Virus record (IMG/VR): IMGVR_UViG_3300009500_000011
Coordinates: 104,585-168,584 of that record
Reading direction: 5' to 3' (one strand)
From: a virus
Lineage: Duplodnaviria; Heunggongvirae; Uroviricota; Caudoviricetes
DNA length: 64,000 nucleotides
In this document: positions 25,104 to 25,274 of the stretch, piece by piece
Position numbering within the stretch: position 1 is the stretch's first letter
Layout of the letters: each line of letters starts with the position of its first letter
Position numbers and translations under genes: made by a program
The notes under the pieces: model-generated
What the model saw: only the letters and a program-made list of their open reading frames with translations
Told to the model about the DNA's origin: nothing
The model's database searches: none

Positions 25104-25188
25104 GGGACTTTGGCAGAGCGGTTATGCAACGGACTCTTAATCCGTGAGGGAAACCTCTATGTGGGTTCGACCCCCACAGGTCCCACCA
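25104..25188 (+). tRNA. type II (long variable arm) tRNA with anticodon CTT
   Basis: Acceptor GGGACTT/AGGTCCC. Leu/Ser-like D arm GGCAGAGCGGTTATGC. Perfect stem ACGGA/TCCGT with loop CTCTTAA. Variable arm GAGG-GAAA-CCTC. T arm GTGGG-TTCGACC-CCCAC, A73, CCA. Confidence 0.65.
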
Positions 25189-25197
25189 AATAACTAT

Positions 25198-25274
25198 GGG
25201 ATAGTAGGAGAATTGGCATATCTACCACGTTTAGACCGTGGGTTCTGTGGGTTCAAGTCCCACCTATCCTACCA
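25198..25274 (+). tRNA. type I (5-nt variable loop) tRNA with anticodon TAG
   Basis: Acceptor GGGATAG/CTATCCT, perfect arm CCACG-TTTAGAC-CGTGG, variable GTTCT, T arm GTGGG-TTCAAGT-CCCAC, A73, CCA. Confidence 0.65.

Follow-up and report, generated by a model that had tools for sequence, protein, structure and literature searches.

A predicted long-arm tRNA-Lys(CUU) and a short-arm tRNA-Leu(UAG): an unusual-looking but essentially ordinary gene pair in a phage tRNA array

A 64,000-nt stretch of DNA from a Caudoviricetes virus (IMG/VR record IMGVR_UViG_3300009500_000011, positions 104,585 to 168,584; hereafter the window) contains two neighbouring tRNA genes with surprising shapes. The first has a long variable arm and the anticodon CUU, which reads the lysine codon AAG, and the second has a short variable loop and the anticodon UAG, which reads the leucine codons CUA and CUG (Table 1). 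An earlier note on this DNA regarded them as tRNAs with swapped scaffolds and anticodons, and suggested recoding and escape from anticodon nucleases among the explanations. We find that the swap and the recoding device are unsupported, and that the pair, however unusual it looks, is essentially ordinary. Both genes probably encode functional phage tRNAs whose amino-acid identity follows the anticodon, with the variable region as their sole departure from the textbook class. Judged by its sequence, the UAG tRNA is truly a tRNA-Leu(UAG), though one that lacks the long variable arm. The CUU tRNA is expected to be a tRNA-Lys(CUU) whose variable loop carries a GNRA-capped hairpin of 4 bp. The codons AAG and CUA keep their standard meaning in the window genes, and the pair belongs to recurrent, little-discussed phage tRNA forms that are already annotated in GenBank phages.

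The two genes are among 32 plus-strand tRNA genes that ARAGORN predicted in the window, 29 of which were supported by the Rfam tRNA covariance model (gathering score 29 bits). The model matched both genes from end to end, with 55.7 bits for the CUU tRNA and 54.3 bits for the UAG tRNA, in the middle of the range of the 29 supported genes. Both have an intact cloverleaf with perfect stems, a canonical T loop, U33, A37 and an encoded CCA end. The CUU tRNA has a 7-bp acceptor stem and the standard 7/5 acceptor/T geometry, a 3-bp D stem (GCA/TGC) that closes a loop of 9 nt, GAGCGGTTA, and a perfect 5-bp anticodon stem (ACGGA/TCCGT) enclosing CTCTTAA. In place of the 4–5-nt variable loop of class I it has a 15-nt hairpin region (GAGG-GAAA-CCTC-TAT). 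The minimum-free-energy (MFE) fold reproduced its anticodon, variable and T hairpins. The UAG tRNA has the D arm GGA-GAATTGGCATA-TCT and the variable loop GTTCT, which at 5 nt lacks the class II shape. The earlier description of a class II-like, A73-bearing CUU tRNA with a 15-nt, GAAA-capped arm, next to a 77-nt UAG tRNA with a 5-nt variable loop, was thus confirmed by ARAGORN and Rfam, except that the spacer between the genes measures 9 nt rather than 10. Both programs placed the anticodon loop of each gene in the same register. A shifted anticodon within CTCTTAA (UUA or UAA) was rejected, as it needs a loop of other than 7 nt, whereas ARAGORN, Rfam and MFE folding all returned a 5-bp stem and a 7-nt loop.

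The UAG tRNA carries a complete leucine signature: a 3-bp D stem, an 11-nt D loop (GAATTGGCATA), A14, A15–U48, G18G19, A20a and A73. Its D loop reads G13 A14 A15 T16 T17 G18 G19 C20 A20a, and GTTCT ends in T48. The determinants listed for Escherichia coli leucyl-tRNA synthetase (LeuRS) are A73, A14, the A15–U48 trans-Levitt pair, G18G19 and A20a, and the long variable arm is dispensable for this enzyme (PMC9976931). All of these determinants are present in the UAG tRNA. As A73 and the D/T-loop corner are in place and LeuRS needs no arm, the UAG tRNA is expected to be leucylated and to read CUA and CUG. The proposed route is that a bacterial LeuRS would recognise A73 and the D/T-loop corner (A14, A15–U48, G18G19, A20a), after which the tRNA would decode CUA/CUG.

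Sensitive blastn searches of the pair against GenBank phages matched 75–77-nt genes annotated as tRNA-Leu in Yersinia phage P778, Acinetobacter phage Acibel004, Aeromonas phage TS3 and Escherichia phage EscoHU1. The D loop of the short-arm tRNA-Leu of all four phages is identical to that of the UAG tRNA. We surveyed 314 ARAGORN tRNAs from 14 phage loci, together with further tRNAs from nine more loci. Twenty of the 34 distinct tRNA-Leu found in phages have fewer than 10 nt in the variable region, and 18 of these have at most 6 nt, but these frequencies are rough because the survey loci were picked by their similarity to the pair tRNAs. Five loci that were chosen irrespective of leucine contained eight short, one intermediate and one long tRNA-Leu arm. 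The rule that bacterial tRNA-Leu are always class II, on which the earlier note relied, therefore stands for cellular bacteria, where tRNA-Leu are class II throughout (PMC9976931), and fails for phage-encoded tRNA-Leu. All short-arm phage tRNA-Leu keep A73, the 3-bp D stem and the 11-nt loop GAAYTGGYAKA, as in long-arm tRNA-Leu, and A73 was found in 33 of the 34 sampled phage tRNA-Leu. In the survey, this short-arm body was paired only with leucine anticodons (UAG, GAG, UAA and CAA). By nearest-neighbour identity, the D arm of the UAG tRNA reached 0.87 with tRNA-Leu and at most 0.70 with other isotypes. A home-made naive-Bayes isotype classifier was trained on canonical tRNAs only (Leu being represented by long-arm class II tRNAs), with the anticodon hidden. 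With a leave-one-out accuracy of about 64–71%, higher with the anticodon arm (70%) than without it (64%), it ranked Leu first for the UAG tRNA both with and without that arm.

For the CUU tRNA, the anticodon arm and the discriminator base point to lysine. The identity of tRNA-Lys depends on the anticodon (U35 and U36, all three bases being read by lysyl-tRNA synthetase, LysRS) and on A73, and no variable-region element is listed (PMC9976931). The CUU tRNA complies with this rule, having the CUU anticodon with U35 and U36 together with A73. LysRS would thus lysylate it through the anticodon triplet and A73, and it would then decode AAG. Given the anticodon stem and positions 32, 33, 37 and 38 as well, the classifier placed Lys at the top. 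Across the long-arm tRNAs the discriminator tracks the anticodon: G73 occurs in all four tRNA-Asn, whereas among 13 distinct tRNA-Lys A73 occurs in 10 and G73 is absent. For tRNA-Asn, identity depends on the anticodon together with G73 (PMC9976931).

The CUU tRNA does not resemble a tRNA-Leu or a tRNA-Ser in the features that define these. It lacks the Leu D arm, having the 9-nt loop, G15 instead of A15 and no A20a, and its variable stem is followed by a 3-nt tail (TAT), whereas phage tRNA-Leu have a 2-nt tail (GT). In folded variable regions, phage tRNA-Ser have stems of 5–8 bp, no more than 1 nt of tail and, in most cases, G73. Compared with these, the CUU tRNA has a 4-bp stem, a 3-nt tail and A73, and only G1–C72 and G2–C71 fit. 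Leu, Ser and Tyr were all outside the top four isotypes that the classifier gave for its body. A swap of scaffolds is therefore not supported, as the UAG tRNA has the Leu scaffold and the CUU tRNA has neither the Leu D loop nor a Leu or Ser arm geometry. The Leu/Ser-like D arm claimed for it is not Leu-like, given its loop of 9 nt and G15. The GAGCGG motif of this D arm resembles E. coli tRNA-Ser and tRNA-Tyr, but is found in the class I tRNA-Lys(UUU) of Erwinia phage Hena1 too.

The window genes use AAG and CUA in their standard sense. In 18 open reading frames (ORFs), AAG accounts for 90 of 497 Lys codons, and CTA and CTG together for 41 of 750 Leu codons, and these ORFs showed nothing odd in frame. 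Four proteins were aligned with 119–150 homologues each. At 23 AAG positions, the alignment columns contained K at 0.30 and R at 0.12, compared with 0.32 and 0.14 at AAA positions (K+R 0.42 vs 0.46). Well-conserved lysines are encoded by AAG at residues 388 and 819 of ribonucleotide reductase, 326 of the TROVE protein and 42 of the exonuclease, and three CTA positions lie in columns with Leu at 0.98, 0.68 and 0.48. A further comparison is with a relative on a 274,834-nt ENA contig (L045), which is about 91% identical to the window over 18 kb. Thirty orthologous genes were compared over 4398 aligned codons. Of the 47 changes at AAG codons, 42 were exchanges between AAG and AAA, and 19 of 23 changes at CTA codons led to TTA, TTG or CTT. 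As AAG exchanges with AAA, and CTA with other Leu codons, the standard code applies and AAG means Lys and CTA Leu. These exchanges, and the AAG codons at conserved lysines, contradict the deliberate recoding or mistranslation that had been proposed.

The selection of the survey loci and the error rate of the classifier weigh against our reading of the pair, as do several further observations. When the classifier saw the CUU tRNA by its acceptor, D and T parts alone, it ranked Lys only seventh, with Met, Asp, Cys and His marginally best, and nearest-neighbour identity of this tRNA without its anticodon arm gave no isotype signal. As its body is not recognisably Lys, the Lys assignment rests on the anticodon arm, A73 and the E. 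coli identity rules. These Lys rules were established in E. coli, and the synthetases of the phage's host may differ. The CUU tRNA also combines A73 and U35, both of which are main determinants of tyrosyl-tRNA synthetase (TyrRS), and its arm, with 0–1 nt on the 5' side and a 3–4-nt 3' tail, resembles that of phage tRNA-Tyr. Finally, one AAG codon, at residue 132 of the exonuclease, lies in a conserved Leu column. This codon was considered as a hint that AAG means Leu and rejected: a 60%-identical relative has the same AAG-encoded Lys, and the genome-wide pattern is Lys. As the relative shares it, the codon is best seen as a lineage substitution.

Like short-arm tRNA-Leu, long-arm tRNA-Lys recurs in many phages that are unrelated to one another. 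The annotated examples of long-arm tRNAs with class I anticodons include an 87-nt tRNA-Lys(CUU) in Xanthomonas phage XacN1 (AP018399, 30565–30651), 87- and 90-nt tRNA-Lys (CUU and UUU) in Caulobacter phage CcrRogue (JX100814, 50365–50451 and 50457–50546), and 83–89-nt tRNA-Asn in Hena1, Acibel004, EscoHU1 and XacN1. An IMG/VR search with a pattern that placed a Lys(CUU) anticodon arm 21–29 nt from GGTTCGA found nine contigs, all of them large phage contigs carrying an 87–92-nt tRNA-Lys(CUU). The arms of these tRNA-Lys share a plan of 0–1 nt, a 3–4-bp stem, a GNRA (mostly GAAA) tetraloop and a 3–4-nt tail, and their stems show compensatory changes (GAGG/CCTC, GGCG/CGCC, GAAG/CTTC and TCTT/AAGA). 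Variable regions were folded one by one, as RNAalifold on a MAFFT alignment of the long-arm tRNA-Lys and tRNA-Asn misplaced the acceptor and variable arms. In loci not picked for this trait, only 4 of 150 tRNAs combine a long arm with a class I anticodon, so this combination is rare there, but it is frequent in XacN1 and in the window. A near-identity search of GenBank phages gave no match to the window. A literature search, which was not exhaustive, found no paper on phage short-arm tRNA-Leu or long-arm tRNA-Lys as a class.

In XacN1 (L029, AP018399, 10587–50654), five annotated tRNAs with the class I anticodons of Lys, Gly, Thr, Cys and Asn are 86–91 nt long. The arms of its Lys, Cys, Asn and Thr tRNAs end in CATC, and GAAA loops cap those of Lys, Cys and Gly, which points to a variable-arm 'cassette' that may be shared across isotypes. 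The window has further extended variable regions on class I anticodons. These are an 83-nt tRNA-Thr(UGU) with an unpaired 11-nt variable loop (23092–23174), an 83-nt tRNA-Val(UAC) below the Rfam gathering score (58131–58213) and a 91-nt tRNA-Arg(ACG) with a hairpin (58686–58776). At the position of the Thr-UGU gene, L045 contains an unrelated 76-nt Thr-UGU gene, which implies turnover of tRNA genes between close relatives.

The arrangement in Yersinia phage P778 suggests how the hairpin arose. In this phage, a class I tRNA-Lys(UUU) is followed after a few nucleotides by a short-arm tRNA-Leu(UAG). The P778 and window pairs align in full with a single clean 10-nt gap, at which GAGAT in P778 corresponds to GAG[GGAAACCTCT]AT in the window, and the P778 tRNA-Lys shares its D stem (GCA/TGC), A26 and its T stem with the CUU tRNA. 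As the pairs align with this one gap, the simplest history is the insertion of a 10-nt hairpin into a class I tRNA-Lys, rather than an anticodon change in a tRNA-Leu. The CUU arm would thus have arisen by a 10-nt insertion into a 5-nt variable loop. As other long-arm tRNA-Lys have Tyr-like bodies, repeated origins of this form are possible.

Strong purifying selection acts on both genes. L045 keeps both tRNAs with one change in 162 nt, where about 14 would be expected at the background divergence of about 9%. The UAG tRNA is 100% identical, and the sole change turns the variable tetraloop of the CUU tRNA from GAAA into GCAA, so that GNRA is kept. The spacer between the genes contains a 4-nt indel in L045, and the flanks have diverged. 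The pair is bracketed by a promoter-like site and a terminator-like hairpin and therefore probably forms one small transcription unit. The palindrome and T run of the latter can be read on the plus strand too. Between the promoter-like site and the tRNA-Lys gene lies a 39-codon Cys-rich ORF (24974–25093, MNTNHRVCRCDGKPYPKSLRCKCNCQCEGCSGARKARSK), which is probably a real small gene, as four of its five substitutions relative to L045 are synonymous.

Table 1. Coordinates of the tRNA pair and of associated features in the window.
Feature	Position	Strand	Basis or remark
tRNA-Lys(CUU) (predicted identity), 85 nt, long variable arm, A73, encoded CCA	25104..25188	+	ARAGORN, Rfam, MFE fold
Anticodon CTT (reads AAG), 7-nt loop CTCTTAA	25136..25138	+	ARAGORN, Rfam
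Variable arm: 4-bp stem GAGG/CCTC, GAAA tetraloop, 3-nt tail TAT	25146..25160	+	ARAGORN, folding
tRNA-Leu(UAG), 77 nt, 5-nt variable loop, A73, encoded CCA	25198..25274	+	ARAGORN, Rfam
Anticodon TAG (reads CUA/CUG), loop TTTAGAC	25232..25234	+	ARAGORN, Rfam
Promoter-like TTGACA-17 nt-TAATAT, upstream of the pair	24939..24967	+	10/12 consensus matches only; hexamers conserved in L045
Terminator-like 11-bp palindromic hairpin with A/T-run flanks, directly after the pair	25281..25306	.	Scored on minus strand; largely conserved in L045
RNA repair/quality-control genes amid the tRNA array	11631-12935, 13436-14197, 24447-24935, 31183-32001, 45439-47205		

Why the variable regions have these shapes is a separate matter, and an answer complementary to the identities proposed here is that they make phage tRNAs poor substrates for host tRNA-cleaving nucleases. 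This is our best guess at the reason, a plausible but tentative one; otherwise, the shapes would be tolerated variation that the synthetases do not see. By sitting beside the 3' strand of the tRNA-Lys anticodon stem, the added hairpin would obstruct nucleases that cut at that place or in the anticodon loop, for example AriB/PARIS (at 40|41), OLD, PrrC or RloC. Without its arm, tRNA-Leu would no longer offer a target to nucleases directed at the variable arm, such as PtuAB in retron-Eco7 or Septu. Decoding of AAG and CUR would thereby be kept alive once the host tRNAs are destroyed. AriB cleaves the lysine (UUU), threonine (UGU) and asparagine (GUU) tRNAs between positions 40 and 41, and T5 variants of these tRNAs rescue infection (PMC12409363). 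T5 tRNA-Tyr resists retron-Eco7 through a different variable loop (PMC13096335, PMC11555353). The AriB cut site adjoins the point where the variable arm emerges, and the long-arm phage tRNAs include the AriB isotypes, namely Lys, four Asn and three Thr-UGU, and these three isotypes are the ones most often long-armed in what is a biased sample. The interleaving of the tRNA array with RNA-repair genes (an Rnl1-type ligase, a Thg1-like protein, RlaP, a 3'-5' exoribonuclease and Ro60/TROVE) and the purifying selection on both genes also fit this explanation. However, long arms are also found on Gly, Cys, Trp, Gln, Ile, Val, Arg, Ala and Met tRNAs, and as they occur on so many other isotypes and the sample is biased, the link to the AriB isotypes is loose. 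Moreover, the CUU tRNA retains the U36-A-A-U39-C40 motif recognised by AriB, and no known nuclease has been shown to attack tRNA-Leu through its variable arm. As LeuRS ignores the arm, short-arm tRNA-Leu could be simply tolerated.

The broader proposal, that variable-region remodelling is a general, undescribed phage counter-defence in which a GNRA hairpin is gained on the tRNAs that nucleases of the anticodon stem and loop read (Lys, Asn and Thr-UGU) and the arm is lost on class II tRNAs that are attacked through it (Leu and Tyr), is rather unlikely in our judgement. If true, the pair would exhibit both directions of remodelling side by side, and the 67-nt Tyr-like gene described below and the RNA-repair genes would be part of the same toolkit. 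Variable-arm remodelling would then be a second route of protection besides point mutations in the anticodon loop and stem.

Turning to the identity of the CUU tRNA, it is improbable that it has a partial dual identity, with TyrRS charging a fraction of it through A73, U35 and the Tyr-type arm geometry. A73 and U35 are the main TyrRS determinants (PMC9976931), and the classifier scored the bodies of the long-arm tRNA-Lys in XacN1 and in three other loci (L036, L040 and L042) best as Tyr. For the CUU tRNA of the window itself, however, the top four isotypes did not include Tyr, C34 and U36 deviate from the G34 and A36 of GUA, and LysRS, reading all three anticodon bases, would compete for it. 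The alignment columns at AAG positions contained Tyr at 0.03, compared with 0.02 at AAA positions, and thus showed no Tyr signal overall.

It is still less probable that the pair are non-functional relics, or pure decoys that soak up nucleases and are unused in translation. Pseudo-tRNAs do occur in phage arrays, as illustrated in the window by the 67-nt Tyr-like gene and a tRNA with an 8-nt anticodon loop, and a role as competitive inhibitors of AriB has been suggested for viral tRNAs when overexpressed (PMC12409363). Against this stand the intact structures of both genes, their mid-range Rfam scores for the array, the single substitution relative to L045, and the recurrence of the same tRNA forms with compensatory changes in many phages.

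The least probable explanation by our estimate is a swapped or ambiguous identity, in which the CUU tRNA is charged with Leu or Ser, which it inserts at AAG, and the UAG tRNA with something other than Leu, for deliberate mistranslation or recoding: LeuRS and SerRS do ignore the anticodon (PMC9976931), nev-tRNAs (PMC3333845) and allo-tRNAs (PMC5389517) are precedents for class II tRNAs that carry a foreign anticodon and receive Leu or Ser, and the exonuclease has its one AAG in a Leu column, but the CUU tRNA lacks the Leu determinants (A15–U48, A20a, the 11-nt loop) and the Ser features, the UAG tRNA has all of the Leu determinants, and the codon exchanges with L045 and the AAG-encoded conserved lysines are those of the standard code.

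The surrounding genome is phage-like, with about 32% G+C, and encodes a ribonucleotide reductase, a DnaG-type primase, AAA ATPases, a Band 7 protein and metallophosphoesterases. The RNA repair and quality-control genes in the tRNA array encode an Rnl1-type RNA ligase, a Thg1-like 3'-5' nucleotidyltransferase, an Rv2179c-like 3'-5' exoribonuclease, an RlaP "RNA repair pathway" nucleotidyltransferase and Ro60/TROVE. The Rv2179c-like exoribonuclease lies immediately upstream of the pair. Among 17 IMG/VR loci of this neighbouring exonuclease, almost none had tRNAs nearby. DNA identical to the window was found in a JGI metagenome and a Logan assembly, and an exact search with the metallophosphoesterase gave only such contigs. 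The ribonucleotide reductase of the window (1733–4195) has no intein, whereas a 98%-identical relative (P0121, 1137 aa) carries a LAGLIDADG intein; in L045, intein or homing-endonuclease signatures were found in PhoH and in an FAD-dependent protein.

The array contains other atypical tRNA genes. A 67-nt tRNA-Tyr(GUA)-like gene (17242–17308) has a minimal D arm and a 2–3-nt variable region and falls below the Rfam gathering score. It follows a canonical 87-nt tRNA-Tyr (17138–17224) after 17 nt and is conserved in L045 (2321–2387); it may represent a variant of tRNA-Tyr that has lost the arm, or else a decoy. Another tRNA-like gene (18948–19021, 35.2 bits with Rfam) has an 8-nt anticodon loop with the four-base 'anticodon' AUCG and is also conserved in L045 (3949–4022). 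In locus L042, a long-arm tRNA with an 8-nt loop (UUUA, 1287–1375) lies beside two long-arm tRNA-Lys. An 83-nt tRNA-Leu with the anticodon AAG (27321–27403) has a 2-bp, GAAA-capped variable arm and is conserved in L045. Its A34 is unusual for bacteria outside tRNA-Arg(ACG).

These results bear on how unusual tRNAs in phage genomes are read. In a study of phage Sf14, 14 of 26 phage tRNAs were "inconsistent" by tRNAscan-SE isotype models (PMC12482277). As phage tRNA arrays routinely break the class I/II rule, such conflicts between isotype and anticodon are not evidence of recoding. If charged as predicted here, natural short-arm tRNA-Leu would confirm in vivo what minimal substrates have indicated for LeuRS, and long-arm tRNA-Lys and tRNA-Asn would indicate that class IIb synthetases tolerate a class II shape. 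The wider significance would be greater if variable-arm remodelling does evade defence.

The closest counterparts of the CUU tRNA are the long-arm tRNA-Lys of XacN1, CcrRogue and the nine IMG/VR contigs. They share with it a Lys anticodon (CUU or UUU), mostly A73, a GNRA-capped 3–4-bp stem and a 3–4-nt tail, and these 87–92-nt tRNAs sit in large tRNA arrays, as the window pair does. Unlike the CUU tRNA, with its 3-bp D stem, GAGCGGTTA loop and generic body, they usually have 4-bp D stems with GGYCGA-type loops and are often Tyr-like, and identity to the CUU tRNA is low outside the anticodon arm. The UAG tRNA has its counterparts in the 75–79-nt tRNA-Leu, with variable loops of 3–6 nt, of P778, Acibel004, TS3, EscoHU1 (the latter two being Demerecviridae) and Streptomyces phages, which likewise have the Leu-type 3-bp D stem, 11-nt D loop and A73 and only Leu anticodons. 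P778 also shares the Lys-then-Leu(UAG) adjacency, differing in that its tRNA-Lys is class I and has the anticodon UUU. In phage T5, by contrast, tRNA-Leu(UAG) (85 nt), tRNA-Lys and tRNA-Asn are of ordinary length.

The nematode nev-tRNAs (PMC3333845) and bacterial allo-tRNAs (PMC5389517) resemble the CUU tRNA in combining a class II shape with a class I anticodon. However, they are charged by LeuRS or SerRS regardless of the anticodon and can mistranslate, whereas the CUU tRNA has Lys determinants and no Leu or Ser ones, and AAG means Lys in the window. In addition, allo-tRNAs have an 8/4 or 9/3 acceptor/T geometry, compared with 7/5 in the CUU tRNA. Among tRNAs linked to defence, the lysine (UUU), threonine (UGU) and asparagine (GUU) tRNAs of T5 act against AriB, and the tRNA-Tyr of T5 and T6 against retron-Eco7 and Septu; these are phage copies of the tRNAs that the defences cleave, and for tRNA-Tyr the resistance is ascribed to a distinctive variable loop. 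T5 tRNA-Lys resists AriB by two changes in the anticodon stem (U39A and A41C), while the change in the CUU tRNA is in the variable arm. Animal mitochondrial tRNA-Leu and minimal E. coli tRNA-Leu constructs are, as predicted for the UAG tRNA, leucylated without a long arm, via A73, A14 and the D/T-loop corner (PMC9976931). Mitochondrial tRNA-Leu uses a dedicated LeuRS and the E. coli constructs were made in the laboratory, whereas the UAG tRNA is natural, phage-encoded and presumably served by a bacterial LeuRS.

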